The notes under the pieces were generated by a model. It saw nothing but the letters and a program-made list of their open reading frames with translations, was not told the DNA's origin and ran no database searches. The position numbers and the translations under genes were made by a program. Positions 22,572 to 59,136 of a DNA stretch of 64,000 bases are shown piece by piece. Numbering within the stretch: position 1 is the first letter of the stretch; each line of letters starts with the position of its first letter. The stretch is from positions 7,998,001 through 8,062,000 of the forward strand of contig JBHGNT010000005.1 in NCBI GenBank assembly GCA_043228905.1. Reading direction: 5' to 3'. This stretch comes from Azolla caroliniana (Eukaryota; Plantae; Polypodiophyta).

Positions 22572-25500
22572 TATCGCGGATATCCGCATGTACATGTTGG
22601 ATGGGGTGAGACCACCAGGGCCTTGAACTAAGGAGTCAGAGAGGGAGACCACAAAGCCTGCAGTGACTAATTGGCTCGATTGCCGGATCTCCTAACTTAG
22701 CGCACGGGCTCGTAAAACCTGTATCCGATCCGGTACTACTATCGCTGGATTCCGGAAACGGAGCACACAGGTTCTCAAACATGATGAGTAAACGCAAAAT
22801 GGAGGAGAGCGGCCCCTCTTGATGAAAGAAATAGAGAAACGAATGTAGACCCAACACAGAAAGGAGTCGGATACATCAAAACCTAGAATAAATTAACGAA
22901 CAAAGAAGAATACAACCGGACTCAGCCGGTGATAGAACTTCGAGCCTCGCTCACACAGACATACACATGCATGCACGTTGTCGCGTAACTACACATGCAT
23001 GTGTGAAGCTAGGCGGGACCATGGGGGCCTCAAACCGAAGAGTTCAAGAAGAAGAAGAATAAGATAGACAGAGGGTGCGTAGGGCGTTAGGTGTCAAGAT
23101 GCATAGAGCACAACTAGCTCGGTCGGGATCGGAGCAACACGCTAGATGATCAACAAGAAACACATACCAACATTTCAATTAGGAGGCAGAGAAGTTACAA
23201 CCGGCTCAGTCGGTAGCCGAGCTACGATCTCAGCGAGCAACCCACGCACACCAATCACCGAAGTACAACGTGGAGCCTCTATTGGGAGCACACAAGCTTA
23301 CCACGCGAGTCGAGGCGTCCGACCTAAGAGGAAACAAACAGAAAAAAAAATGAGAATATAGAGAATAGGCACTTGGTTCCCAGTCCGATAACACTTCGTT
23401 CTCCCTAAACATGCGATCCCTAACTCAGTCCTCTCTACCTCCTTTTATAGACCAAGGAGGGAGATGGATGTTACATCAAGTAATTAATCTTTGTCGTCTC
23501 AGACAGAGATTCGCCTAGATTTATTCCTTTATTTAATTTTCCCTATTAAAGTTTTATACATCGCGCTGACCTAGCCTAGTCCTATGTTATTGACAAGTAC
23601 ACAATTTATTTTCACGTGCGTCCATGCACACACCCATTCACGCCTCTCCTGTCCCTTTTCTCCTTGTGGCCGGAAGTCCCCACCAAACCGCACTCCACCG
23701 GTATGTGCCGAGAGAGTGAGAGAGAGATGGGGAAAACCGGCCGTTTGTCACTTGTTGTCCTAAGATCCGTCGACTCCCCCGTCTTCGTCTGTTCTTTCTG
23801 GGTCGTCATTCTCGTCCACACAATCCGGGTCCGGCTCGTCCTTGTACCGCTTCTTGAATGCCTTGATCCACTTTCCCGCGACCGGTACTGCTATCCATGT
23901 TCCATCGAGCTTCACGAGATGGTATGTGGCATTGTCGTTCGGGCTTGTCATCATGTAAGGCCCGAACCATCTCCTTGCGAATTTCCGCGTCGCCTTATGT
24001 TGGTTATCGAGGCTACTGTCGTAAACCAACACCTAGTTGCCTTCCTCGATCTTCTTCGGTCTTAGCCGGTGTGTTCGGTCGAACCGGTCCTTATTCTTTT
24101 CCCGTGCCGCGCACAATTTCGCCTTCGTCTTCGCCTGCTCCATGTCCTCCAGCCTTCGCTCGAGCTAGTGAATCCGCGCCGCTAACAGCTCCTCTCGACT
24201 CATTTCGTCTATCTGGCCGATCGCCGCCCATGAAGAGATCGTCTGCTCCATTGGCATGATCGGCTTCTGCCCGTACATAAACTCTGCCAGCATAAACCCG
24301 GTCACCGAACTATGCGTAGTCCGGTCTGCCCACAACACGTAAGGTAAGAGCCTTGGCCAGTTCCCGACTTGTCCCTCGCAAGCCTGTACTAATGCCTTCA
24401 CGATTGGCCCATGTCCGCACTCCACCTTCCCGTTTGCCTCTGGATTGTACGCCGTAGTGAGAGAGAGTTTTACCCCTAACCGACCGAACAACTCTTCGGC
24501 TTCCAGCGCGTCCAACTCTTCCCGATCGGCCACGATCTTCCCCACGCATCTGTATTGGCAAACCAACTCTTCGATTAGGAATCGACATACGACCGCGGTC
24601 ATTTTGTTCTGCAGTGCACGACCCTCTACCTGGTTCGTTAGGTCCTCTTACGCAAGCACCAGGTACCGCATCTGCCCCACCCCCATCGGCATTGTCATTA
24701 AATCCACCGTCCATTTGAAATGGAAAGTTGGCGGGTAGGTCGGGTGCAACTCGTCTCTATGCAGGATCGTGGAATACATCTGGCAACTTTCGTAGGTTGT
24801 CACTAATTGGTGCATGTCACGGTAAATCCTTGGTCACCAATATTTTGCCTTCAGCTTCTCGAACGTAGCCCACGTTCTGCGGTGTCTAGCCCAAGGGCTC
24901 TCGTGGTACGCTTACAACAACGCCTTCTGCTCTTGGGTAAAAGCATGCTAGTGGAAACACTATTATAGCTAATTAGCTACTAAAATGGCCACAACTAATT
25001 AGCTATTTGTTTAGCTAGTTTTTTGTGGGAAAATCATAAGGATGGTTTACGAAATTTTATGTTTTATTAGTTAAATACATGTCATTTTATTGATGGGAAT
25101 ACTCAACTATTTGAACTTTGGTTTTTGACGTAATGGAACATGGGGAATAGTGCCATCATCTAAGGTCGACTTGAATGTCATCAAATTCTTGATAATCTAG
25201 AGTTCGAGTTCGAACTCCAAACAGATGGAGTACTCTAAGCATGAACGAAGATGACGCCCCCGCAGCAACACAAAAACTTTGAGATCGACATTGCACCTTC
25301 AGAGCTACAACACACAAGCTAGTTGATCCTCATCTAGGTATGTATCAGTTACATATTAAAAAAACTTTTTTTTCCTAATTTATAACTGTTTGTAACTTTG
25401 GTGCCTATTCATCTTTCCCAAAAATCGAATAGGGCGAAGACGTTGGAGTCCCAAACAATGATGTCTCGAACATCGGGGTGTAGGAGCAGGTGTGTTTCTG

Positions 25501-26359
25501 ATTGACAGAATTTTGTAGTACGGTTGATTTCTGCCTTTAGTGATGATTAGGGTTTGTGTTTCCCTTAAGTGGTTTAGGGTTTCTGATTACAAATTTCAGA
25601 TTGCAAGTTTCTAGTTACAAATTTCTAATTACAAATTTCTGATTACTGTTGCAATCTGTTGTAATTTTGCACCAATTCTCATGACAAATTTTGATTAGGG
25701 TTTCTGATTTTTTAAGTGGTTGATTTCTAATACATGTTGAAAAGGACAGATTACAAATTTCAAATTACTGTCTCAAAGTGTTGTAATTTTGCACCAAATT
25801 CACATTAAAAATTCGGTTTTTGCACCAATTCTGATTACTAATTTTCTATTTCAGGTGGCTCGTTCCTCCCTATCCTAGAGTGCTAAACTTCACAAAATTT
25901 TGCGAGACAAAGGAGGACTTTCACAACATATATGGTCTGTTGCTCGAGGGCATTGACCCTGCTGTTCTAATTGATAGATTGATTAGTGATGTAGATTGGA
26001 TGTCAGTATATAAAGTGTCTAGAGTGAAAGGCCAGGTCAAGCTCAAGCATGTACGACTGGACCTGTACAACGACTGCATGAGACTACATCAGAAAGTACA
26101 TCAAGAGATCTCAGTCAACAACGAGTTGACCGTTTCATTTGCCAAAGCTTTTGCATACGAGTATTGCAAAACAACGAAGGAATCTTGTGACCCTGAAATG
26201 TAAAGGGTAGCTTGGGCAATTTATGGTGAGGCATCGGTAGAAAGATGTCGGAAGATGGGGAGCTTGCAACAAAAAATGGCAAGATTTTGGAGCATGGCAG
26301 TTGATGATGCAACTGTCGACTCCCAACAAACCCGCAAGTATACGCCAGATCGACACACA

Positions 26360-27083
26360 ATTAGCTAAGTGGTAGCTCATTAGATACTACCATATGTTAG
26401 CTGAGTAGCTAATTAGCTACCACTTAGCTAATTAGATACTACCATATAGGTTCTGCACTTCCCAATGTAAAAATATATCCATACTTTAGCTAATTAGTTA
26501 TAGTGGCTAATAAGCTAGTACCATACTTTAGTACAGTAGCTAATTAGCTAAGTGGTAGCTAATTAGCTACTACCATAGTTTAGTACAATAGCTAATTAGC
26601 TAAGTGGTAGCTAATTAGCGACTATCATACTTTAGATGAGTAACTAATTAGCAAAGTGGTAGCTAATTAGCTACTACCATAGTTTAGCTGAGTAGCTAAT
26701 TAGCAAAGTGGTAGCTAATTAACAACTACCATAGTTTAGTACAATAGCTAATTAGCTAAGTGGTAGCTAATTAGCTACTACCATAGTTTAGTACAGTAGC
26801 TAATTAGCTAAGTAGTAGCTAATTAACAACTACCATAGTTTAGTACAATAGCTAATTAGCTAAGTGGTAGCTAATTAGCTACTACCATAGTTTAGTACAG
26901 TAGCTAATTAGCTACTACCATACTTTAGTTATAGTGGTTAACTAGCTAGTATCATACTTTAGTTGAGTAGCTAATTAGCTAGTACCATACCTACGCGAAG
27001 TAGCTAGTTAGCTTAGTGGTAGCTAGTTAGCTACTGTCATAGTTTAGAAAAATAGCTAGTTAGCTTAGATGTAGCTAATTAGG
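26360..27083. repeat. Tandem array (~52-bp unit) of the palindrome TAGCTAATTAGCTA, in an intron of accessory gene 1
   Basis: Unit approx. GTAGCTAATTAGCTACTACCATAGTTTAGTACAATAGCTAATTAGCTAAGTG, with shorter deletion variants. Confidence 0.95.
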
Positions 27084-27295
27084 GACCATGTTGTTGTAGA
27101 ATCTTGCGGATTAAGGAGGGTGCATGACCTGTTTGGTGCTGATGACGCTGCAACCGATGAGGAGATAGTTGCCAACGTGGCTGAAAGTAAGAGTCCTGCT
27201 ATACATCTCCTTCAGATCAACTCCACCCTATTCTTTTGGAAGATGGTAATGAATTAGGCAACGATGTGAAAAGCCATGAAATATTGGAAACAACA

Positions 27296-28105
27296 TGTTG
27301 GGAGACATGTCCCTCCGGATGGGAAAGGAGAAGAACAGTGCCGATGAACAAACTTGGCCGAGGCCGAGACCGGATGAGGAGTACCCGGCTACGGAGAGCC
27401 GGATGATACAGACCCGGTGAAGACCGGATGAGGAGTACCCGGCTACGGAGAGCCGGATGATACAGACCCAGTGAAGACCGGATGAGGAGTACCCGGCTAC
27501 GGAGAGCCGGATAATACAGACCCGGTGAAGACTGGATGAGGAGTACCCGGCTCCGGAGAGCCGGATGATACAGACCCGGTGAAGACCGGATGAGGAGTAC
27601 CCGGCTACGGAGAGCCGGATGGTGCAGCTACGGAGAACCGGATGAAGAGACATATTCGTAAATATGTTTTCTGATAGTCCACCGAGGCTATATTTGTAAA
27701 TAGCCGAAAAGTCATATTAGTATAAATATGACTTAGGGCAAACTAGTAGTTGTTGTTGTCATTCTTGTTGGTGCAAGAATATAGAGAGAGTGCGGAACTG
27801 TGTACAGAGAGAGAGAGAGAGAGAGAGAGAAAGAGGTCGTTGCCTCTGTTGTAACCGCCGCCTGTGGCGAAGATCTGTGAGCACGAGGTCGTTGCCTTAG
27901 TGAACTCACTGTTGTACATTCTTACATAGTGACAGTTTGCAGCCTGTGGGCTGCCGTGGTTTTTCCCCTAGTTTGGGGTTTTCCACGTAAACCTCCAGTG
28001 TATCTTCCTCTTCTTTGTGTCGTGTTCTATTTCCCGTTTTCTGTGTATCATTCTAAGCTCGGTTGTGGCCGAGCGTAGCGCATAAGGAACGTTGAGTTCC
28101 CGTCA
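27296..28105 (+). mobile_element. Copia solo LTR (810 bp) with a 54-bp U3 tandem repeat
   Basis: TGTTGG...CCGTCA; perfect TSD CAACA; ~5 copies of GAAGACCGGATGAGGAGTACCCGGCTACGGAGAGCCGGATGATACAGACCCGGT; same family as 59954-60710. Confidence 0.93.
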
Positions 28106-28695
28106 CAACATGTAAATCTGACGTTCACAACAATAGTGTTTTTGAACACTTAATGTGCCAACATTTCTTCAAATCCCAATACCTTGATTCCACCCCATTG
28201 AGCCCAACTACTGATAATGTCCAAACAGATCCCACTGTACTGGAAAAGCTAGTGCAAGACATGGCTGACTTGCATGCCGCTGCTGAGGTGATGGAAAGGT
28301 TGTCTGAGGAGGACACACTTGCGCAATGGGTCAAAGAAGCAAGGCTAAATGGGCAATCGGCTAGAAAAAGGCTAAAGAATGGGCCACGATCGGGGACAAG
28401 ACCAGTTACTCGTTCAAGGGGCTCTTGAATTGGAGCGAAATACTTATTAGTGGGACATGATTGCTAGCGATTTTCCTAGGGTTTTATGAAGTTTTGCTAT
28501 GATCTATTTGGACAAGTAAAACCTCAGATTGGTTGTTGCTTGATCCACATTATGTAATGGAACTCTATGATGTTTCTCCAAGATAATTATGTTCATGTTT
28601 CTATGATGGAAAATATTTCATGTTCATTATGTTGTTTTGTGAGACTGTTAGTTACTTTGTGAGTGTGAATATGTTGGTGTTTTCTGATTTTGCAG

Positions 28696-29660
28696 AGTCT
28701 AAAGGGTTTGAATCTATTGCTCCTAAGGTCGATGGTAGTGTGGAAATTGTTGATGTTGTTGCGTGTTTAGAGGGCCACATCTTGAAAGTAGATGTAGCAA
28801 CTGACACAAATGATCTGGTCACGCAAGTTGATCAAGCATGTTGCATAGATGATCTGATTTTGCAGGTAGATGCAGCATGTGATACCAATGGGTTGATATC
28901 GACTAGATCAATATCTACATACACTGAGCCAATGACTAAGTCGACAACACAAGAGCACCAGAATGTGAAGCCAAGCCCAACACAGTCGACCAAGGGTTTA
29001 GAGAGGAAAAAGACACCAATTGTGCCGACAGAACCTGAGTTGATTGACCTTGATCGTGTGCTACCAGTAATTGGTGTAACAGAGGCTCAGTTACAGGAAT
29101 GGAAACCTAAACCATTAGAAGTCGAAAGAAGAGCCTTGATCTTGGAGCTTGATAAAGTCCTGATGAGTGTGCGATATATGACACCAAGGAGGGATGCAAA
29201 TCAATTTCTGGAGTGGGTTGTGCAATATTTTGATGTGTTTATTTGGAGCGAAAAACCATGTACAGATGTGTGGAAGTGTGTAGAAAGATTCTTCCCAAAG
29301 TGGCGACAACATTTCAAGGGTCAGTGGACACAAGAGAATTGTGAGCAGAATGATGTTGCAAGATTCAAAAGACTTTCTGATTTTTGGGACACTTGGCCAG
29401 ATTATAATGCCGACAATACGTTGATTCTGGATACATAACATTTCCAACATTACTTCAACATTCGCAGATGCTGTTTCATTCTACCCGATGAAATGTCTGA
29501 ACACTAATTGGTGAAAACATTGACCTGCCAACTAGTTAAATGGTTGTGGACTCCATACCGTGCTCGGCATGCAGAAGATATATGTAGAGAAGTTCCACTG
29601 ACCAGCAAGAGCTTAGCTGTTTATAGATGATTTCAAGACATTGGCAATGAGATGTTATAA
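28696..29660 (+). pseudogene. Accessory gene 2 of the Sola2 element: FCP1/NIF (HAD-like CTD phosphatase) domain protein
   Basis: RALILELDKVL..RRDANQFLEWVVQYFDVFIWS..WTQENC..FKRLSDFWDTWPDYNADNTLILDT matches the NIF/FCP1 domain layout. DxDxT/V is altered to ELDKV. Stop at 29436. Confidence 0.7.
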
Positions 29661-30149
29661 ATATGTAATTTGCTACCACTTAATCAATGAAGAATTAAAT
29701 TGCTTGCTTTGAGTAACTTATCTACTGTGTAATTTTAAGAGTATGTTCAGGATTGTTGATTTCATGATAGTGCTTTTTCTTAAAATTATGCAAACTATTT
29801 TAACTTGTACATGGTTCACTTGAGAAAATCTGTATCTCAGAAAGAAGAACCCTAAACGATATTATTAAACTATATATATCAGAAAGAAGACTGTATATAA
29901 AAATGACACACGATTTTGTTGAGAAAGAAGCACAAAAAGTAGACTGTATATGGAAAAAAAAACTCCCAAACAGGTCCATTAAACTGTTTATTTGCAATAC
30001 ATGCGCTTTGTTTGTTTTACAAGAAAACTGGTAATTGCTACTTGTAGCTACAAATTCCATGGCATACTGTTGTAAATACATTCATACACATTAGCACTAA
30101 CTGTGTGTAAACCTAAGCAACTATTGTATTGCGACATTGGTACATTGAT

Positions 30150-33100
30150 GCACCTGACCAAATGAGAGTACATGTACGCCACTGGTTTGTCTTCTAATAG
30201 CCTATACACATAATTGTAATCATCTAGTCTTGCATAAAAAATACCTTCGATGTAGAATGTCCCGGTAGATACAACATTTCCCCAAGCATCTAATATATTC
30301 TACGTTGCACACTGTTTCTAACCGTGCACTTCAATATATAGAAATTAGCACCCTCTGAATTGCCTTCTTCTGCATTTATAGCGAAATTATCGCCAACATT
30401 TAAGACATCACTCCGAGTATCTCCACGTCCTTGATACGTGAAGTTAGCATTCTTTTCTGTTTCTCCATCAACTGCTTCCTTATCGTTCAATGTATGATAC
30501 TCCCAATTCTGAATATATGCTTTATTTAAACAATACCTCCGATTTCCCTGCACACAATGGAAGAAAAAACAAGTTAATTCTCTAACCGCAATACAATGAC
30601 CATCCAACCTAGAATAACTGCGAACAACATGGAGAGATCGCAATTCGGGAATTCCTTGGCAGTCCCAGGTCTTCTCCCTATTTACTTCATCTATCTTCAC
30701 TTCCCAAAATTCACGTTTGATATCTCGGACCTGCGAAGAATAAACACCAATTGCACTCGTTGACATATAAGCTCTTAAAAATTCAACTACATGTGTTGCA
30801 CAATTCATCTGCACACCATCTACCTTTAGTTGTTCACGGGTAAGTGCCCACTTTATAACAACACTTGCACCATCATGTTCACCTTTACCATGGCCAGACC
30901 CAAAAAAATTCAATCTCATCTCCAAACCTATTATAGTAGGATACCTCCCCACAAAATAAAATGGACGTCTAACCTTGAACTGTGACGCAGCTCCATCAAA
31001 CCAAACCCAATGTTGAGTAAGCTCCAAACGTTTAGCTAATAACCATTTTCTATGTAAGTTAAAACAATGTTGGACGAATAAGGTGTCATGGTTCTTATCA
31101 TCATAAAAAAAAAAATGAATTACTTTTTTAACATCACCTGAAACTCGAAAATATGTTATGTGCACAAAAATGGTTACCTACGCTGAACACCAATGCATAG
31201 ATTGAATTTCATTCTACTGCTTGAAAGTATAATTCTCTGCGAAATCTACTATTGAGACTACTACATCATTTGGAAAATTAGATATGCAAGTCTTAAACTA
31301 ATGGGCTTGCCATGAATAAATGAAGTTGTGTTTAATGAACTTTCCTAGAGATACTACAAATAGAGACGCTAAATCCCTTGGTTTAAGAGACTTCCTAACT
31401 AGATCCTTTCTTTTACACACCTTTCCTTCAAAATTGGTGTCAACTGACTCAAATAACATGACAAAAATTAGTATTTCACTACTCAATTCATTTGGACACC
31501 ACCTAAATCTACTACTAGGGCCACAATCTTGACATAAACCCATGACACATTTATGACTGTGGAAGATGGTCTTAGTTTCTGTCAGACACAATACTGAATC
31601 TAAAAGACAATTCATGGAAGAGATAACATGCTCAGATGATTTACAGTGCTCATGCGGGCTCGATCGACAAATTGGGCACACACAAGTGCAAACTGCATTT
31701 TTTAGGGAGGCACTATGGTGACGTAGTAGATTAACAGAGTCCTTGAGAAAACCCATTTGTACATGGTAAATGCAACAATATGTGCATCGATCCTTCAAGC
31801 GTCTCACAAAGTGTGGCTTAAGAGACTCGAATGTTCGTAATTGAACTTTGATATTTGGATGCATTCACCTGAACCTAATAAATAAATCAATTTGCGTAAT
31901 AAATGGACATACTGATTAGCTCTATGGCTAAGTGGTAGCTAATTAGCTACTACCATAGTTTAGTACGGTAGCTAATAAGCTAAGTCGTAGCTAATTAGCT
32001 ACTACCATACTTTAGTTGAGTAGCTAATTAGCTAAGTGGTAGCTAATTAGCTACTATCAAACTTTAGTTGAGTAGCGAATTAGCTAAGTGGTAGCTAATT
32101 AGCTACTACCATACTTTAGTTGAGTAGTTAATTAGCTAAGTGGTAGCTAATTAGCTACTATCAAACTTTAATTGAGTAGCGAATTAGCTAAGCAGTAGCT
32201 AATTAGCTACTACCATACTTTAGTTGAGTAGCTAATTAGCTACTACCATACTTCAGCTGAGTAGGTAATTAACTAAGTGGTAGCTAATTAGCTACTACCA
32301 TACTTCAGCTGAGTAGGTAATTAACTAAGTGGTAGCTAATTAGCTACTACCATACTTTAGTTATAGTGGCTAATTAGCTACTACTATACTTTAGTTGAGT
32401 CGTTAATTAGCTAACTAGTAGCTAATTAGCTACTACCATACTTCAGCTGAGTAGCTAATTAGCTACTAACATACTTTAGCCAATTTTGGTAGCTAATTAG
32501 CTATTGTTATAGGCAACTAATTAGGTATTGTGGTAGCTAAATAGCTATGAATGGTAGCTAATTAGTTATTCTGGTAGCTAAATAGCTATGTTTGATATAC
32601 TTAGGGAGCTAATTAGCTATTACTAGTAGCTAGTTAGCTATGGGCATATTTTGAGGTATGTAATTAGCTATTCGGGTATGGTCATATTCAGAGGTAGCTA
32701 ATAAGCTAACTAACTAAGCTCAAAAGTCAAAACAAATGTTGAGATAAATGTAAATACCTGAGGTACATCAAGAAGATGAATGGGATGCTCCTCGTATTGA
32801 CTCCTTCCAACACGTTTCCTGCATAAATCCTTCTTATTGGGTGAAACGCTACTCTCATTAGTCCAAAATATTGTGATTATATCCTTAATTTCTGATGTTA
32901 TGGGTGTCATTGGCTTACATCTTGTTGTTAGCTTTAGTAGACTAGTTCTTCACCCGAGGAAACTATTCAGTTCAATGTATTGTACACACTTTTTCTACTA
33001 ACACCATTTACCTTAGATAGCACACTAATGTTAATATCGTCAACATCACTATTAAGTAACATCATTAGACTAGACCTTTTTAATACAAGATCATCTTCTG

Positions 33101-33511
33101 TCCTACTCATGGATACGAAACTATTATGGAGATTATTTACTAGTACAGATGTTATGTTTGCATTAGACCATCACAATCAACTAACTCCTTTATCGATGAA
33201 TCATTTAATATTCCATAAAGTACTACCTTCTTGTCTTCATTGCTGATGTGCTTGGTTTGAACATTGAAATAGTCTACAACCTTTCTCTCTATGATAGTAG
33301 TCTCATTACTTTTCTCAGTGATATTTAGACCTATATCCCAACCAATACTATCTTTACCTTTAGTGAGTGTGGCTTTCGTATCCTTCAACAATTGACGATG
33401 TTTTTTTTTTTCTGCCCAATACTTTCGTATTGCTTCTTGTGTCCTAATAGCATCATCCCTATCCTGATGATCATTGAGGGGCAATTCTAAACACTCTCCT
33501 TCCCCTTCCAT
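30150..33511 (-). pseudogene. Sola2-type DDD transposase (disrupted, intron-containing)
   Basis: N-terminal MEGEGECL..; FWTNESSVSPNKKD; FESLKPHFVRR..CCIYH and a Cys-rich zinc region. Catalytic motifs VDFAENYTF..EIQSMHW (~31200-31250), WFDGAASQFK and NFFGSGHGKGEHDG. Intron donor at 32757 precedes the satellite array. Confidence 0.85.
31914..32720. repeat. Second TAGCTAATTAGCTA ~52-bp tandem array, in the transposase intron
   Basis: Same unit and same + strand orientation as 26360-27083; decays into ~20-bp monomers toward 32720. Confidence 0.95.
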
Positions 33512-33689
33512 TTGGCTTGACGGGTTTAAACCCTAATTTCCGGAAAAAAAAGCATGTATTAAAGATGGCTATGGGCAACGACTATACACAAAAATATTCC
33601 GCAATACACAAGATTATACACAACAATACACAAGATAATCAATAGAAAGAATAGTTATTCAAATCCAAGACTGAACAAGGGTGGTAATC

Positions 33690-34730
33690 TAGGGTCGAAT
33701 AGTGGCGGCAACTGAGTGTAGAATGGCGGTAGTGGAGGAGTGAACTCTGTTTGATCGAACAGTTTTGACAATCCAGGACCGCACAATGGCGGCAACTGAG
33801 TGTAGAATGATGGCAATGGAGGAGTGAATTCCATTGGATCGAACAATGGCAGATGGTGCTTGGAACGCATAGTGACGACAACTGAGAGTAGAATGGTAGC
33901 AGTGGAGAAGGAGTGAACTCCTTCAGATCGAAAAGTGGCAGCAATACACCATTGAACAGTAGCGGCAACTAAGTGTAGAATGATGGCAATGGATGAGTGA
34001 ACTCCGTCAAATCGAAAAATGGCAACAATCTAGGACCGAACAATAGCGGCAACTAAGTGTAGAATGATGGCAATGGATGAGTGAACTCCGTCAAATCGAA
34101 AAGTGGCAACAATCTAGGACCGAACAATAGCGGCAACTAAGTGTAGAATGATGGCAATAGAGGAGTGAGCTCCGTCAGATTGAACAGTGGCAGATGATGC
34201 TTGGAACGCACAGTGACGACAACTGAGAGTAGAATGGAAGCAGTGGAGGAGTGAACTCCTTCGGATCGAGAAGTGGTCGCAATACACCACCGAACAATAG
34301 CGGCAACTAAGTGTAGAATGATGGCAATGGATGAGTGAACTCCGTCAAATCGAAAAGTGACAGCAATCCAGGACTAGTCACCGAATAGTAGCAACAATTG
34401 AGTGTAGAATGATGGCAATGGAGGAGTGAACTCCGTCAGATCGAACAGTGGTAGATGATGCTTGGAACGCACACTAATGGCAACTGAGAGTAGAATGGCG
34501 GCAGTGGAGAAGGAGTTAACTCCGTCGGATCGAAAAGTGGCAGTAATATACGACCTTCACAATAGCGGCAACTGATTGTATAATGGCGGCAATGGAGGAG
34601 TGAACTCCGTCGGATCGAACAGTGGCAGATGATACTTGGACCACACAGTGCCGGTAACTAAGTGTAGAATGGCGGCAATGAAGGAGTGGACTCAATAGGG
34701 TTTAGCAACAGTGGTAGTAATCTAAGCTAG
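33690..34730. repeat. Minisatellite, ~12 units of ~84-90 bp with higher-order structure
   Basis: Core GGCAACTRAGTGTAGAATGATGGCAATGGAGGAGTGAACTCCGTCAGATCGAA with three alternating linker variants. Confidence 0.92.
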
Positions 34731-35342
34731 AATACTCAACCAAAGATGGCCCACGTGATGTGGCAAAGGATCATGCATAATGGACCTAGGAATTCGGTAT
34801 ATAATTTATGGTGGACATATCAATTTATGTTGCACATTTATGGTGCTCATTTATATAATTAAAACTCTCTACTATTTTCAATGGTAGCTTTTTGCATAGC
34901 TAATTTATCAATGGTAGTTTTTTGCAAAAATGACTATTTATCAACAGTAGCTTTTTGAATAGCTAATTAGCTTTGTCAAAGACATAGCTAATTGTTTCCA
35001 CTTGCATGCTTTCGCCCTCTTCCCTTCTTGGGATGCCTCCATATACTCCCATTCTGCAAGAAGAACCGATATGCCTTCTTCCGGGTCCTGTTCGCCTCGT
35101 CCCTCGTCCATGCCGCGTCCGGTGTCAATGTCCTCAAGAATCTGCCTATTCTAAGCCACTCCCCTTCGTACTCATTCTCATTGAACTCGTTCAGTGCCGG
35201 AGCGCTCCCCTCCCTTGCTATTACACAAGCCGACTCGAAGAAGACCATGCCGACTTCTTCGTGTTCCGAAACCATGCTACCCTCATCATCAAAATGCTCT
35301 CTTGAAAGCATATCGGCCATGGCATTATCTTTGCCGGAGATG

Positions 35343-45152: not shown

Positions 45153-48100
45153 GGACACCCCGGGGAAACCCCACACATGTACCATAGATAGGAAAGTTTG
45201 GTTCTCCGATAACGGAGGTTGTACTATAGCCGGCATCAGCGGCCGGGAAAAGAAGCGGGCGAAGGAAAGATTCAGGGCGTGCGGTGTCCTCGGCCCTGGC
45301 GAAGAGATTAGTGGCGCCATGGAGCCGCTCTCCTTCGATGACACCCTGGGGGAATTACGCGGTGTGGTCGAAGAAGGCCTTAGTGAAGACCGCACGATTC
45401 CGGTTAGCTTAGTGGAGATGTATGAAGTCATTGCTGACTTCGGAGAAAGGGTTGAGTCGGACCGAACGACTCGCATGGATACAAGGTACAAGACTGTGGA
45501 CCGAAAGGTGAGGCCAGTCGCGGCTCCCTTGCCGGAGGGCAGCAAGGAGCCGTCAGGTGCCCCATTTTCTAATCGGTGGTTCACCGTGCCGAAAAAGAAC
45601 GGCACGCTACACTTCATACAGGACCTATAGCCGGTCAACAAGGTGACCATTCGAAACGCAGGTATCGGACCAACAATCGACGAGTTTGCAGAGGCCTTCG
45701 CCAGAAGGTCAATCTATTCGGTCGGTGATCTATATTCAGGGTATGACCAGTTCCAACTAACCGTAGAGAGCAGGGATATCACGACGATGCGGACTCCTCT
45801 CGGCCTAGTACGGATGTGCACCCTGCCGCAGGGAGGGACCAACTCGGTGGCGCACATGGTGAATGCGATGAAGAAGGTACTAAGGGACTGCGTCCCAAAC
45901 ATCACCATGACATTCTTGGACGACATCCCGATCAAGGATTGTCCGGTAGGGAATACGGACGAATCGGTCGGGTCGGACGGATGCTGGAAATTTGTCGTGG
46001 ACCACATCAATGACTACGAGAAGGCTCACCCTCTCCGGAGAGAAGTCAGCTTTTGGATAGTCGGAGATCCTGGTTGTCGGGCACTTGTGTGGGCCTTACG
46101 GCCGGAAACCGTCTCCCGCAAAGGTGGAGGCCATCTCTACAATGAAGGATAATTGTGGATCGGTTACGGAGGTCCGGAGGTTCTTGGGGGCATGTGCGTT
46201 CTATCACATCTGGATTCCGCACTACGCACATGTCGCGGATCCACTCTACGGGCTGCTGAGAAAGGGGCGTAAGTTCGAATGGGACAAGGAGCATACGGAG
46301 TCGATCCGAAGACTAAAGGAGGCGCTTACTGTAGCACCGGCTCTCTGGAAAGTGATTTACAGCAAGGAGGTACCAATCTACGTAATTATAGATACGAGTC
46401 CGACCAGGATAGGATGGGTGATCAATCAAGAGGACGAGATCGGCACGCGGTTCCTGATCCGATTCGGGGCGATGGTTCTCAATGAGAGACAGCGAGGATA
46501 CGCCCAAGTTAAGCGCAAACTATGGGGTATCATTTCGGCAGTCAAGACCGATAAGGACTACTTGATCGGGACAGAAGTAATCATCGAGACGGACTGCTTG
46601 CCGATCCTCGGTATGGTTTCCGGATGCGTGACTCCGGATCTGGCAATGCTCAGGTGGATTGCGTACATTAAGTCCTTGGACCCGGAGATACGACACATCT
46701 CCGGAAAGGACAACACCATCACCGATATGCTTTCTAGAGTGTGTTTTAACGATGAGAACGACATGGTTTTGGAGGACGAAGAAGTCGGCGTAGACTTCTT
46801 CAAGTCGGCTCGCGTAGCGACAAGGGCAGGGAGCACTCCGGTGCTTAACGAGTTCAACGAGAGCGAGTACAATGGGGAGTGGCTCCAGATTGGAAGGTCC
46901 CTGAGGACAATGACGCCAGACGAGACATGGACCAAAGAGGAGGCTAACCGAATCTGAAAGAAAGTGTACCGCTTCTTCCTACAAGACGGAAGTATATGGA
47001 AGCTCCCAAAGAAGCGAGGCGACGTTCCACTCCGCATAGTGGCAGGAAAGGACGAGCAGGACAAGTTGTTAACGGCGTACCACGAGAGTCCTTGGGTCGG
47101 ACACCGCGGGACATGGGCCACGTTTGAGAAACTGAAAGAGAAATATTATTGGCCGGGGTTGTATCGGGATGTGTACCAATTCGTGACGATGTGCGAAAGC
47201 TGTCAACTGCACTCCACAGTTCGACATCGAGATGAGCTACACCCGACCTACCCGCCAACCGTCCATTTCAAGTGGGTGGTAGACTTAGTGACGATGTTGA
47301 TGGGGGTAGGGCAGATGTGGTACCTGGTGCTTGCGCGGGAGGATTTGATGAACCAGGTGGAGGGCCGCACACTGCAGAACAAGATGACTGCGGCAGTGTG
47401 CCGGTACGGGTGCGTAGGGAAGATCATGGTGGACCGAGGAGAGTTGAACACGCAAGAAGTTGAGGAGTTGTTCGATCGGCTAGGGATCAAGCTCTCCTTG
47501 ACCATGGCATACAATCCGAAGGCCAACGGGAAGGTAGAACGCGGGCATGGGCCGATCGTGAAGGCGTTGGTACGCACGTGCGATGGACAAGTCGGGAATT
47601 GGCCGTGGCTCCTTCCTTACGCGTTGTGGGCGGACCGGACTACACATAGTTCAGTAACAGGGTTCATGTCAGCGGAGCTAATGTACGGGCAGAAGCCTAT
47701 CATGCCGGTGAACCGGACGATTTCCTCTTGGGCGGTGATAGATTGGAGAGACGAGAGGAGCCGAGAGGAGCTGTTGGCGGTGCGGATTCGACAGCTTGAG
47801 CGAAGACCGGAGGACATGGAGCGTGCAAAGGCAAAGCTACATGAGGCGAGGAAGAAGAATAAAGGCCGGTTCGACCAGATGCACCGGTTGCGGCCAAAGA
47901 AGATCGAGGAAGGCGACTGGGTGTTGGTGTACGACAGCAGCCTCGACAACCAGCACAAGGCAACACGCAAATTCACGAGGAGGTGGTTCGGGCTCTACGC
48001 CGTAACAAGCACGAATGACAACAGGACGTAACATATTGCGGAGCTCCACGGGACGCAATTAACAGTGCCGAAAGCCAAGAAGCGAATCAAGGCGTTCAAG

Positions 48101-54078: not shown

Positions 54079-57000
54079 TGTTGGGATTTACGGTCCCTCC
54101 GGATGGGATGTCCGGAGATGAATGACGGCAAGCCCGGTTGCGGTTACGGAGCCGGACGACGAAGACCCGGCTACGGAGCCGGATGATGAAGACCCCGGTT
54201 ACGGAGCCGGATGATGAATGTACCCGGAGAGAGATCCGGATGCGGGGACATATTTGTGAATATGTTTGCCAAGGGCCCTTGTGGCTATATTTGTAAATAG
54301 CCGGAAAGTCATATGTGTATAAATATGACTTAGGGCAAACAGTTTTATGTTGCTACTCATTTTTCTGTTTTTCCACTTAGAGAGAGTGAAGAGAGCAGCC
54401 GAGAGAGAGAGAGAGAGAGAGAGAGACGAAGAGGTCGTTGCCTCTGTGTATTACCGCCGCCTGTGGCGAAGACAGTGAGCTCAAGGTTGTTGCCTTGAAG
54501 CTTCACCATTGTACATCTCTGTTCATAGTGATAGTTGGAGTTTGAGGACTCCCGTGGTTTTTTTTTCCCTTATAGGGTTTTCCACGTTAATCCCTGTGTT
54601 ATCGTGTCTTTCTCTGTGTTTCCTATTTTCTGCTGCATTGATTCGTGATTTCTCGGTTGTGGCCGAACGGTGAAGGTGAATCGGAGCGTTGATTCACGAC
54701 AAAGTGGTATCAGAGCGACGGTAACACAGAAAATGGAAGGCGGCAGCAGCGGGCAGCCGGGGATGATGGTGCTGAATGCGCAGAACTACGCCGACTGGAA
54801 GATCAAGATGGAAGATCTTCTGATTGTTCGGGACCTGTACGAACCGATTGACAGGTCGGAAATACCGAAGGGAGTACTTGAGTCGGAATGGAGGCTTCTG
54901 AACCGGAAAGCCGTTGCAACCATCCGGCAATACGTCGACGTGAGCGTTCTACAGCATGTAGCGAACGACACCAACGCATACGAGATGTGGCAGAAGCTGT
55001 CGGGCCTCTACGAGAGGAAGAATGCGTTGAACCGGACCTCCCTGATGAGGAAGATAGTGAACCTCAAGTACCGGGACGGCGAGAGCATGGTGGAACACGT
55101 AAGCACGTTCATGGGATTCGTGAACCAGCTTGCGGCAATCAAGTTCCCGCTGGAGGATGCAATGCAAGCCATCATTCTGATGTGTACATTGCCGGAAAGC
55201 TGGGAGAACTTGGTGGTGACTCTCAGCACCTCCTGCACCGAAGATAACTTGTCTCTACAAACGGTAAAGACAAGTATTTTGAACGAAGAAGCGCGTCGGA
55301 GAGATAAAGAACCGGCCTCCGACCCGAAGGCGCTGCTTACCGAATCGGATCGGGGAAGACAATGGAACCGGAGTCCGCAAAGACGGGAGAAGTCGGGGAC
55401 CCGGTCGCAGTCAAGAGGAAGGCCCACATGCTTCCACTGTGGGAAGCCGGGGCACTTCCGGAAGAATTGTCGGCATTACCGAAAAGACAACGGAGCCGAC
55501 GACACCGATTCGAAGAAGTCACCGGAGAGAAACGGTGCATACCGGGGAGCCACGGACCGGAGAGGTCCGGATCGGCGAGGGCAGGACCGGAAAGGAACGA
55601 CGGCACTCGCGGCAAGTGAAGAAGAAATAATGCTCATTACCAAAGAGAGGGAGCTGAACCTTGCCGGTGAAGAGATGACCTGGGTGGTCGATTCCGGAGC
55701 GTCGTTCCACCTGACCCCGGAGAAGAAATACTTCTCATCCTACATAGCCGGTGAGCACGGCTGTGTCCGGATGGGAAATGAAGGTACGTGCCGGATTGCC
55801 GGCATAGGAGACGTGTGGCTGATGACATCAACCGGATGCAAGATGCTGCTGAAGGATGTTCGACACGTTCCGGAGGTTCGATTGAACCTGATTTCGGCCG
55901 GGAGGCTAGACGATGAAGGCTACACGGGTAGCATCCGGAACGGTGTCATGAAGTTCAGCAAGGGGAGCCTGATAGTGGCTCGGGCCCGGAAGGTCAACAC
56001 ACTGTACCTGATGAATTCCCGGCTATGTCCGGAGGAGTTGAATGTGGCAGCCGACACTGCCGGTGAGCTGTGGCACAAGAGACTGTGCCACATGAGTGAG
56101 AAGGGGATGAAGAGGCTTGCAGAAGACAACCTTATTCCAGTGAAGCATGTGCACCTGGAGAAGTGCACCGACTGTCTGGCCGGTAAGCAAAACCGGACCT
56201 CCTTCCACTCAAGGCCACCGACGAGACGTAGCGCACCATTGGAGCTGGTGCACACCGACGTGTGTCAAGTAGAAACGAAGTCACATGGCGGAGCCCAGTA
56301 CTTCGTGACATTCATAGATGACCATAGCCGGAAGCTGTGGACGGCACCGTTGAAGACAAAGGACCAAGTATTGTCCGTCTTCAAAGAACTCCACGCGAGA
56401 GTGGAAAGAGAATCCGGCAAGAAGCTGAAAGCGATACGAGCGGATAACGGAGGAGAATACCGAGGGCAATTTGAGGAGTATTGCCGTTCGATGGGGATCC
56501 GGCTCGAGTTTACCGTGCCGAAGACGCCGGAACTGAACGGGCTGGCCGAGAGGATGAACCGGACCATAATGGAGAGGGTCCGGAGTATGCTGGCGCATGC
56601 AAAATTACCCAAGGGGTTTTGGGCTGAGGCAATGTCGACGGCGACATACGTGATAAACAGATCACCCTCAGTACCTTTGGACGGAGACACGCCGCAGAAA
56701 GTGTGGACCGGTAAGGAAGTGTCCTACCGGCACCTGAAGGTGTTCGGGTGTCTCGCATACGTGCATGTGGCAAAGGACCGGAGAGGAAAGCTAGATCCAA
56801 AGACCCGTCCATGCATATTCCTCGGTTACGGCGACGATGAGTTCGGCTACCGAGTATGGGACCCGGTCGACAAGAAGATATTCAGGAGTCGAGATATCAT
56901 CTTCATGGAGGACAAGACACTCGCCGACTGGGAGTCGGAGAAGAAGATGAAGAGCTCCAAGTCGACCGGTGAGGATCAACTCTACGAGGAGCAGTCCCGA

Positions 57001-59136
57001 CCGGCAAGGGACCGGTTAGCACTCGAGGATCCGGCCGAAGACGGTGAAGAAACAGAACCGGCCGAAGAAGATGAAAATGATACCGGAATCGGCCCCGATC
57101 CCGAAATGGATTCAGATGAAGAAGAATCGGAAGAACCGGTTACCGAAGCCCCGGAACGGAGATATCCTCTAAGAGAGAGAAGGGCCCCCCGGAGATTTCC
57201 GGAACCAGAGCACGTGCTGCTAACCGACGAGGGGGAGCCGGAGAATTTTGAAGAAGCAGAGCTTGACACACATAGCCGCAGGTGGTTAAGTGCCATGCAG
57301 GAGGAGATGGATTCCCTGCATGAGAACCACACATATGAACTTGTGGAGTTGCCGAAAGGAAAGCGGGCACTTCGAAACAAGTGGGTGTTCAAGCTGAAAC
57401 CGGGAGATGCCGGAAACCCCCCGAGATACAAAGCCAGGATCGTGGTGAAGGGGTTCCAGCAGAAGAAGGGCGTCGACTTCGACGAGATATTTGCCCCGGT
57501 AGTGAAGATGACCTCCATCCGGACGGTGCTGAGCATAGCGGCAAGCACGGACCTCGAGGTAGAACAGATGGACGTGAAGACGGCATTCCTTCACGGTGAC
57601 CTCGAAGAAGAGATCTACATGCAGCAACCGGAAGGATTCGAGAAGAAAGGAAAGGAGCACCTGGTATGCCGGTTGAAGAAGAGCCTCTACGGTCTGAAGC
57701 AGGCTCCCCGGCAATGGTACCGGAAGTTCGACTCTTTCATGACCGACGAAGGGTACCACAAAACGCAGACCGATCACTGCGTGTTTGTGAAGAAGTTCGA
57801 AGGAGGAGACTTTCTAATACTCCTCCTGTACGTGGACGACATGTTGATCGTCGGACGAGACCAGGTCAAGATACGGATGCTGAAAAGGGCTCTTCACCGA
57901 ACCTTCTCAATGAAGGACCTGGGTCCGGCGAGGCAAATACTAGGGATGCACATCATCCGGGACCGGAAGAAGAAGCAGTTGTGGTTGTCACAGGAGAAGT
58001 ACGTGACAAAGGTGCTTCACCGGTTCAACATGTCGGAAGCAAGGCCGGTCGGATCGACCCTCCCGGCAAACTGCAAGTTGTCCAGGAAGCAAAGCCCCAA
58101 GACAAAGGCTGAGAAGGAGGACATGATGAAAGTACCATATGCCTCTGCCGTCGGGAGCTTGATGTACGCGATGGTGTGTACCCGACCGGACATAGGATAT
58201 GCAGTCGGAGTGGTGAGCCGGTACATGAGCAATCCCGGCAAAGAGCACTGGAACGCGGTCAAGTGGATACTTCGATACCTGAAGGGCACGGCAAACATGT
58301 GCCTCCGATTCGGCTCCGGTAAGCCCGAACTCGATGGATTTACCGATTCGGATATGTCGGCTGATGCAGATACCAGCCGGTCCACATCAGGGTATGTGAT
58401 GACGTATGCAGGGGGAGCTGTTTCATGGCAGTCGAGGCTGCAGAAGACGGTTGCACTGTCAACCACGGAGCCGGAGTACATGGCAGCTGTTGAAGCCGGC
58501 AAGGAAATAATATGGATGAAGGACTTCATTAGAGAGCTCGGTATCCGGCAGGAGGAGTACCGACTCTACTGCGACAGTCAGAGTGCCATCCACCTTGCGA
58601 AGAACGCGGCCTATCACTCCCGGACGAAGCACATCCAGCGAAGATATCACTGGATCCGGGAAAGGATAGAAGACAAGGAGTTCGTGCTGACGAAGATCCA
58701 CACGGACGAGAACAGGTCGGATATGCTGACTAAGGTACTTACACCCGACAAGCTGGAAGCATGCCGGAAGAGGATCGGATTGGAGAGACATCCCATGCCG
58801 AAGTGAAGGGGGAGTTTGTTGGGATTTACGGTCCCTCCGGATGGGATGTCCGGAGATGAATGACGGCAAGCCCGGTTGCGGTTACGGAGCCGGACGACGA
58901 AGACCCGGCTACGGAGCCGGATGATGAAGACCCCGGTTACGGAGCCGGATGATGAATGTACCCGGAGAGAGATCCGGATGCGGGGACATATTTGTGAATA
59001 TGTTTGCCAAGGGCCCTTGTGGCTATATTTGTAAATAGCCGGAAAGTCATATGTGTATAAATATGACTTAGGGCAAACAGTTTTATGTTGCTACTCATTT
59101 TTCTGTTTTTCCACTTAGAGAGAGTGAAGAGAGCAG

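Follow-up and report, generated by a model that had tools for sequence, protein, structure and literature searches.

A Sola2 transposon family of Azolla caroliniana with a convergent accessory gene and palindrome arrays, a possible self-regulation system

Transposon-encoded sequence-specific regulators are known from few flowering-plant systems. Two of these, VANC of the VANDAL elements and TnpA of Spm/CACTA, are the closest to the element described here. In the accessible parts of the sources, VANDAL DNA transposons keep an accessory gene whose product, VANC, has a coiled coil (PMC5735166, PMC13547354), and family-specific short motifs form tandem arrays in their introns and terminal non-coding parts (PMC5735166). 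TnpA, in the accessible part of its source, is a second element-encoded protein with family-specific clustered motifs, also located beside the termini, and with roles in both activation and transposition (10.64898/2026.08.24.746577). The same traits, the last as a proposal, are found in a Sola2 element that spans positions 24935-35017 of a 64,000-nucleotide stretch of Azolla caroliniana DNA (contig JBHGNT010000005.1, positions 7,998,001 to 8,062,000; hereafter the window).

In addition to its transposase gene, the element contains a convergent accessory gene and, outside the coding parts, several tandem arrays. Two of these, Arrays 1 and 2, are built on the perfect palindrome TAGCTAATTAGCTA, which is repeated near both ends. 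By analogy with TnpA and VANC, we propose that the accessory protein would bind the palindrome arrays of its own family and act as a sequence-specific activator and helper of its own copies, a reading to which we give roughly even chances. The arrays and terminal palindromes are as follows.

26359..27082: Array 1, palindrome array with a 52-bp (19+33 bp) unit, in predicted accessory intron 5
31927..32720: Array 2, with the palindrome and 52-bp unit of Array 1, in the transposase intron
33701..34693: Array 3, an unrelated CG-containing 84/170-bp repeat, upstream of the transposase
25580..25646: fourth array, 14-bp unit, beside TAGGGTTT words in accessory intron 2; expanded in young copies
24966..24979: left subterminal palindrome TAGCTAATTAGCTA; core at offset 33-34 in 13 of 14 two-ended copies
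34960..34973: right subterminal palindrome core (core at 34962); 11 of 14 two-ended copies have it at most 60 bp from this end

The three arrays in non-coding parts listed by a first-pass annotation of this DNA (26487-26914 and beyond, 52 bp; 31927-32720, 52 bp; 33701-34693, 84/170 bp) were all recovered. The palindrome common to Arrays 1 and 2 and echoed at both ends had been overlooked, as had the fourth, 14-bp array. At the ends, single cores lie at a distance of 33 bp (left) and about 56 bp (right), 8-35 bp inside the terminal inverted repeats (TIRs). All 31 exact GCTAATTAGC cores in the 64-kb window fall within the element, so their clustering is not due to chance. The 10-bp core is invariant in six subfamily groups, with differing spacers. 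The core spacing changes from 19/33/52 bp in old copies to mostly 20 bp in young copies, and two-ended copies carry 65-105 cores when young versus 27-51 when old. Across the genome, the doubled motif with 20-bp spacing is found 3134 times. Array 3 is present in 12 of 12 TIR-bounded copies. The TAGGGTTT words of accessory intron 2 (window 25548-25703; L029:650-975) number nine in the young copy examined, and we take them to be telobox-like.

A scan for relatives of the family gave 80 loci. In 16 of 28 related families, and in none of nine control flanks, the 2 kb upstream of transposase exon 2 contain a tandem array. The array words differ between families and are palindromic in some but not all of them. 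One such intron array, in L080, is an imperfect ATGCTAATTAGCAT palindrome near the core of the window family. These comparisons bear on the idea that the arrays are by-products, namely a self-complementary word expanding in long introns by slippage and conversion, with an accessory gene whose job is unrelated. As single-stranded DNA, Array 1 folds far better than shuffles (z -9.0), and such strong folding would favour slippage. Array length is highly variable among near-identical copies, 12 of the 28 related families have no array by the cut-off used, and no methylation-type protection is seen near the arrays. We nevertheless consider this explanation quite unlikely: the core stays constant despite flank turnover, the identical word occupies fixed subterminal positions, arrays are absent from the control flanks, and unrelated words, several of them non-palindromic, form arrays in the same intron of other families.

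The accessory gene lies on the plus strand, facing the transposase gene, and the following parts of it are recognizable in the window copy.

25225..25337, plus strand: accessory exon 1; contigs of two runs, aligned to an intact copy, have intron 1 spliced out
25433..25489, plus strand: accessory exon 2, 57 nucleotides
25855..26360, plus strand: 5' part of accessory exon 3, with the helical N-domain (about 135 amino acids) and one stop, truncated by a deletion
27100..27186, plus strand: predicted accessory exon 6, short form of 87 nucleotides, in frame; acceptor and donor kept in 13 of 13 aligned copies
27187..28428, plus strand: open continuation of exon 6, an acidic then basic tail that runs to a stop and may be an alternative last exon; in the window copy a solo long terminal repeat (LTR) splits it
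28696..29657, plus strand: accessory exon 7, linker and FCP1/NIF fold with ELDKV (Pfam PF03031, E 2.8e-06); three stops in the window copy

In an intact copy, seven accessory exons join in frame to encode a protein of 808 amino acids, with the domain order N-domain, coiled coil, RING, linker and FCP1/NIF fold. Compared with intact copies, the window copy has a deletion at 26360 that took the 3' part of exon 3 and exons 4-5, which encode the coiled coil and RING. The first-pass annotation had described two extra spliced genes converging on the transposase. The two are probably one spliced gene, severed here by the deletion and the solo LTR, as suggested by the 808-amino-acid frame, the conserved splice sites and fern models with both parts. 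Introns 1-3 are spliced at GT..AG in contigs of two runs (one study, whose status as RNA is a guess). The splicing contigs leave the element inside exon 4; they therefore come from a rearranged copy and are no test of the later joins. We infer the RING-to-NIF join from the frame, from four splice sites of matching phase kept in 8 of 8, 13 of 13, 13 of 13 and 13 of 14 aligned copies, and from the Adiantum models P0139 and P0198, in which the N-domain and NIF occur in one chain.

Two observations count against a single gene: a RING-to-exon 6 or RING-to-NIF join was found in no contig, and NIF is present in only 2 of the 57 long homologues scanned. No run is recorded as RNA, and missing contig cover over exons 5-6 carries no weight as evidence. 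Two separate genes, the first closing after either the RING or an extended exon 6, the second being a NIF gene with its own start codon, would agree with the lack of contigs bridging the halves, with an in-frame ATG just upstream of the NIF exon, and with P0181, a 448-amino-acid protein that has the N-domain, coiled coil and RING and lacks NIF. The exon 6 frame is also open to its stop in both subfamily consensuses, and its ratio of nonsynonymous to synonymous substitution rates (dN/dS) is 0.73, which is not significant (p 0.32); this extension may be an alternative last exon. The conservation of four phase-matched splice sites across subfamilies and the single-chain fern models speak against two genes and make them very unlikely, and alternative splicing of one gene could explain both forms, with and without NIF.

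The HMMER search with the N-domain gave 139 homologues, the long ones among which were scanned for domains. All homologues that carry a name (18 of 20 looked up) are models from Adiantum. The AF2 model of the N-domain, built from 56 sequences, is a small helical domain with pLDDT 93 and pTM 0.86. No database match beyond the homologues was found for it in Pfam or in structure searches, and the fold searches with the model gave nothing usable (best E 1.4 for Foldseek against PDB, best Z 2.8 in a wide search, best E 0.78 in a viral library). The ESM Atlas search also yielded no usable match. These weak scores demonstrate neither a new fold nor the absence of a relative. The model of a single-exon homologue shows the N-domain, then long helices, then a RING-like end, and the model of the 448-amino-acid homologue gave coiled-coil and weak RING matches only (HRD1 RING, root mean square deviation 2.1, E 0.63). 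The RING exon has a C3H2C3-like pattern with a wider-spaced last pair and, taken by itself, no Pfam match; in the RING homologue P0181, zf-RING_2 matches at E 0.0008, below the cut-off, and P0176 and P0198 are likewise sub-threshold. Four fern models (P0114, P0183, P0203 and P0193) have the N-domain fused to gag or zinc-knuckle sequence of retrotransposons and are probably nested insertions mis-joined by gene prediction.

The NIF part scores above the Pfam cut-off (PF03031), and its best solved relative is UBLCP1 (PDB 3shq, E 3.6e-06). Active FCP1/SCP phosphatases have the motif DxDx(T/V). This motif is found in none of 13 NIF homologues surveyed, where it is replaced by ELDKV (4) or by DLNG or DLNN (9), so the phosphatase fold has probably lost or changed its activity. 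The NIF search pointed to no named host gene as donor. The first-pass annotation had missed the NIF identity of its second putative gene, together with the RING that is deleted from the window copy.

Selection was estimated by comparing a young consensus (8 copies) with an old consensus (13 copies). The accessory domains are under purifying selection, with dN/dS of 0.15 for the N-domain (p 1.6e-09), 0.22 for exon 4, 0.35 for the RING exon and 0.23 for NIF, and 0.27 over all 786 accessory codons. Neutral evolution of the accessory reading frames, raised in the first-pass annotation as a concern to be checked by dN/dS, is therefore not what is found. A neutral captured host gene was also considered and is ruled out by these values.

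Under the proposed reading, the transposase would read the conserved TIR core and the accessory N-domain would read the variable palindrome word. The coiled coil might let the accessory protein occupy many sites, such as those at 20-bp spacing in young copies, and the RING and the likely inactive phosphatase fold might recruit or block host chromatin or transcription factors. Cognate copies might as a result lose methylation, be activated in transcription or be helped to transpose. Two recognition systems are suggested because the TIR core is common to families with differing array words: it is shared by the window family, L078 and L083, each of which has its own intron word at end position 47-61 (a word that occurs 104, 15 and 10 times, respectively, in the intron of the family concerned). 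More tentatively, plant Sola2 elements may have evolved a third independent sequence-specific self-regulation system after VANC and TnpA, in which a DNA-binding domain of new fold, oligomerised by the coiled coil on intron palindromes that vary between families, would bring a RING ligase and a decoy resembling a C-terminal domain (CTD) phosphatase and override silencing.

It is also conceivable, though somewhat unlikely in our judgement, that the arrays are extra transposase-binding sites, serving as end-pairing or activation enhancers, and that the accessory protein acts via protein contacts only, either helping integration or using its RING and pseudophosphatase to counteract a host silencing factor. 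The position of the palindrome just inside the TIRs at both ends and the variation of the exon 1 helix-turn-helix (HTH) between families would suit such a role, the relationship of NIF to UBLCP1 together with the RING points to ubiquitin-related protein work, and the convergent layout recalls what we take to be that of mudrA and mudrB in maize MuDR. Against this, the shared TIR core with differing array words suggests two recognition systems, and most motifs are located kilobases from the ends, in introns, like the VANC sites described in the accessible part of PMC5735166.

Several findings weigh against recognition and activation by the accessory protein. The N-domain is not markedly basic (23 K/R vs 20 D/E), and no DNA-binding mark was found in its sequence. 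Transposases alone can activate their own copies, according to the accessible part of 10.64898/2026.08.24.746577, a point that also favours the arrays as transposase sites. The HTH-bearing exon 1 of the transposase is divergent between families (19-43%) and as variable as the accessory domain, so the transposase could track the array word equally well. The terminal echo is absent in two of five families (L107 and L136), whose second ends were not found. A domain like the N-domain occurs in only 8 of 23 related loci with at least 5 kb downstream, many of the loci being decayed, and its link to the family N-domain is weak (E 0.0008-0.0014 for two targets). Two copies, L173 and L175, share a NIF-removing deletion at different sites, so NIF is dispensable in cis. 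C-to-T decay in 13 old copies is similar in array-adjacent and distant positions, both at CG (78/580 vs 286/2273, p 0.58) and at CHG (105/751 vs 510/3489, p 0.69), with no relief beside the arrays or the element ends. In young copies, CG/CHG decay reaches 0.8-1.0% vs 0.04% for T-to-C, about twentyfold, and the copies have therefore been methylated most of the time. This decay pattern fits mostly silent copies and would be compatible with transient activation.

To judge from a weak sequence link, distant plant Sola2 families may have a related gene that is likewise convergent on the transposase. A profile of the N-like domain seeded with L090, L091, L107 and L122 detected it in nine loci, the four seeds and L095, L099, L119, L153 and L154. 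The domain always lies on the opposite strand, 3.4-9.2 kb downstream of the transposase, with none upstream or on the same strand, and the reversed control gave at most 4.6 bits. In L080 and L083, NIF converges on the transposase; L089, L119 and L122 have weak RING matches in the same arrangement. Intact-looking single open reading frame (ORF) accessory genes facing Sola2 transposases occur in L090 (7029-8732) and L091 (3686-5302); these ORFs encode the N-like domain, a long acidic tract and a coiled coil, with no RING or NIF in the ORF. In L080 (2767-3972), the NIF ORF extends up to or into the 3' region of the transposase gene that faces it.

The ends, the transposase exons and a foreign insertion in the window copy are located as follows.

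24931..24934: left target site duplication (TSD), TCTT
24935..24959, plus strand: left TIR, GGG-tipped, 25 bp, matching the right TIR at 22 of 25 positions
27297..28105: solo LTR, 809 bp, with TSD CAACA and its own 54-bp repeat; foreign to the family and missing from intact copies
30051..31888, minus strand: transposase exon 2, with a Cys-rich part, the DDD core (DFAENY, SDG, HGKGEHDG) and a C-terminal part; stops and frame breaks
32758..33521, minus strand: transposase exon 1 with the HTH (Pfam HTH_11, E 5.6e-05, below the cut-off, on an intact copy)
34993..35017, minus strand: right TIR
35018..35021: right TSD, TCTT

In an intact copy, the transposase has 865 amino acids encoded by two exons, and a single contig from run X1, its short side 21 letters long, bridges the predicted intron. 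Its dN/dS between the two consensuses is 0.19 over 861 codons. No Pfam or PDB match was found for the transposase core, and no MULE Pfam match among 32 aligned transposases. The conserved C-terminal part of about 150 amino acids (L029:6749-7200; window about 30051-30500; dN/dS 0.12) has no match in Pfam or PDB, and by eye we take it to be BAH-like. Ferns, liverworts and conifers are the sources of the named transposase homologues. Sola2 termini have the form G-R-G, and both ends of the element carry GGG. By-eye comparison shows that the motifs DFAENY, WSDGAASQFK and WNFFGSGHGKGEHDGAG agree with the Sola2 alignment of PMC3627910 (Additional file 10), which also gives a 4-bp TSD as a Sola2 feature. 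The assignment to Sola2 is thus supported by motifs and TSDs, in line with the first-pass placement. Sola-2 makes up 0.6% of the Cryptomeria genome in the accessible part of a published listing, and Physcomitrella Sola1 is the only Sola entry in the accessible part of a land-plant review table. The view that Sola2 is mainly known from outside land plants, taken from the first-pass annotation, thus needs the qualification that Sola-2 is already annotated in a conifer genome. Three families whose transposases are 45-60% identical have a short inner inverted repeat of the ATGTC-nnn-GACAT type, about 30-45 bp inward of the end on the transposase side (window 34900-34992; L078:1790-1860; L083:39-110); it is a candidate second transposase site.

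The element is inserted in the pol region of an LTR retrotransposon. The window copy is 3.5% from the consensus of the older subfamily and is dead, with stops and frame breaks in the transposase and the accessory gene alike. Its GGG..CCC TIRs, identical at 22 of 25 positions, the TCTT duplication on both sides, the DDD transposase in two exons on the minus strand and the decay itself (six stops within the transposase matches, several frame breaks, the deletion and the solo LTR) all agree with what had first been read from this DNA.

First-look candidates in the 523-Mb genome of Azolla caroliniana number 1378 for the transposase, 690 for NIF and 659 for the N-domain. Distant-query searches of this genome returned this family only. 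Exact TIR-pattern matches number 600 genome-wide, with none in the control. The family is high-copy, with about 300 copies having exact ends, and recently active, and 11 young copies are only 0.08-0.47% from their own consensus. Among 15 two-ended sequences, the 4-bp TSDs match in 11, or in 12 when a one-base shift of one end is allowed, and disagree in 3; in a further set of TIR-bounded copies they match in 12 of 12. From the first 100 of the 600 TIR matches, 32 end pairs were read by hand: 22 are 9.5-12.5 kb long, 5 shorter (minimum 4,980) and 5 longer. No pair the size of a miniature inverted-repeat transposable element was found among these 32, none being below 4.9 kb. Among 10 copies picked by transposase, 6 have every accessory exon, 2 have internal losses and 2 lack the N-part inside the range fetched. 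The N-domain exon and at least one array are kept in all of the 12 shortest end pairs, 7 of which have internal deletions. Loss of the accessory genes or arrays from other copies, the outcome that the first-pass annotation had named as counting against its view, is not the pattern seen, as the family carries both gene and arrays. The identical deletion in L173 and L175 removes most of exons 6-7, the TSDs of the two copies differ, and this type appears to be a NIF-less derivative that moved.

The remainder of the window consists mostly of nested LTR elements. The host LTR retrotransposon misses 35 bp just beyond the right TSD (35018-35030) compared with a relative at 46722-47343. A copia-type LTR retrotransposon at 54649-58806 has a single open gag-pol frame of 1385 amino acids, with LTR-like repeats at about 54149 and 58887.

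If the proposed reading is true, the same design arose repeatedly, in another superfamily and in seed-free plants, from unrelated parts. It would then imply a previously unseen DNA-binding fold and might yield a means of activating chosen targets. Within one genome, the family provides hundreds of near-identical targets for a candidate site of 14 bp, and its sister families have differing words. If the reading is false, a large, recently active and apparently undescribed two-gene Sola2 lineage is still at hand. No description of the accessory gene or of this layout was found in the literature searched, with Repbase, subscription journals and bioRxiv supplements outside the search.

Compared with the Sola2 elements of PMC3627910, the window family shares the motifs DFxENY, SDG and W.FF..xHGK..DG.G, the F(Y/W)...SR..P.KKD and Cys motifs ahead of the core, and a 4-bp, mostly AT-rich TSD; Sola2 elements are also known to carry passenger genes, such as Fanzor1 (PMC3627910). 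It differs in its length of about 11-12 kb, in the array-bearing transposase intron and in the convergent gene with N-domain, coiled coil, RING and NIF. In the accessible part of PMC12477816, Sola1-1_Ec32 of Ectocarpus is likewise a large Sola element, and the accessory gene on its opposite strand has been proposed to bind the DNA of the element itself, but it belongs to Sola1 and its cargo, ParB and an amino-methyltransferase, is unrelated to the accessory protein. The NIF domain resembles the FCP1/SCP/UBLCP1 HAD phosphatases in scoring above the Pfam cut-off and differs from them in the replacement of DxDx(T/V).

VANDAL elements, as described in the accessible parts of their sources, are Mutator rather than Sola transposons, and VANC has DUF1985/DUF287 and a MAIN-like fold, is described as dicot-specific and has been shown to act in demethylation, whereas in the window family demethylation is one of several possible effects, the motif is a perfect palindrome, and the accessory protein includes RING and NIF parts. 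No Pfam match to DUF1985, DUF287 or PMD was found in 61 proteins, in 56 alignment members or, at E up to 10, in seven proteins. The fold searches list no VANC entry, the presence of 9LNK among the compared chains being uncertain. The VANC-like label of the first-pass annotation thus fits the proposed way of working, not membership in the VANC family, as the superfamily is wrong and no VANC domain is detectable. TnpA, in the accessible part of its source, is reportedly derived from a transposase and acts at the termini, whereas the window gene is separate and convergent, with most motifs internal; no transposase-related Pfam or fold match was seen for the accessory protein, no TnpA profile being among those compared. 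The wrong superfamily and the lack of DUF1985/DUF287/PMD matches place the family in neither the VANC nor the TnpA system. The motif of the window family also lies beside the termini, which makes TnpA no more distant an analogue than VANC.

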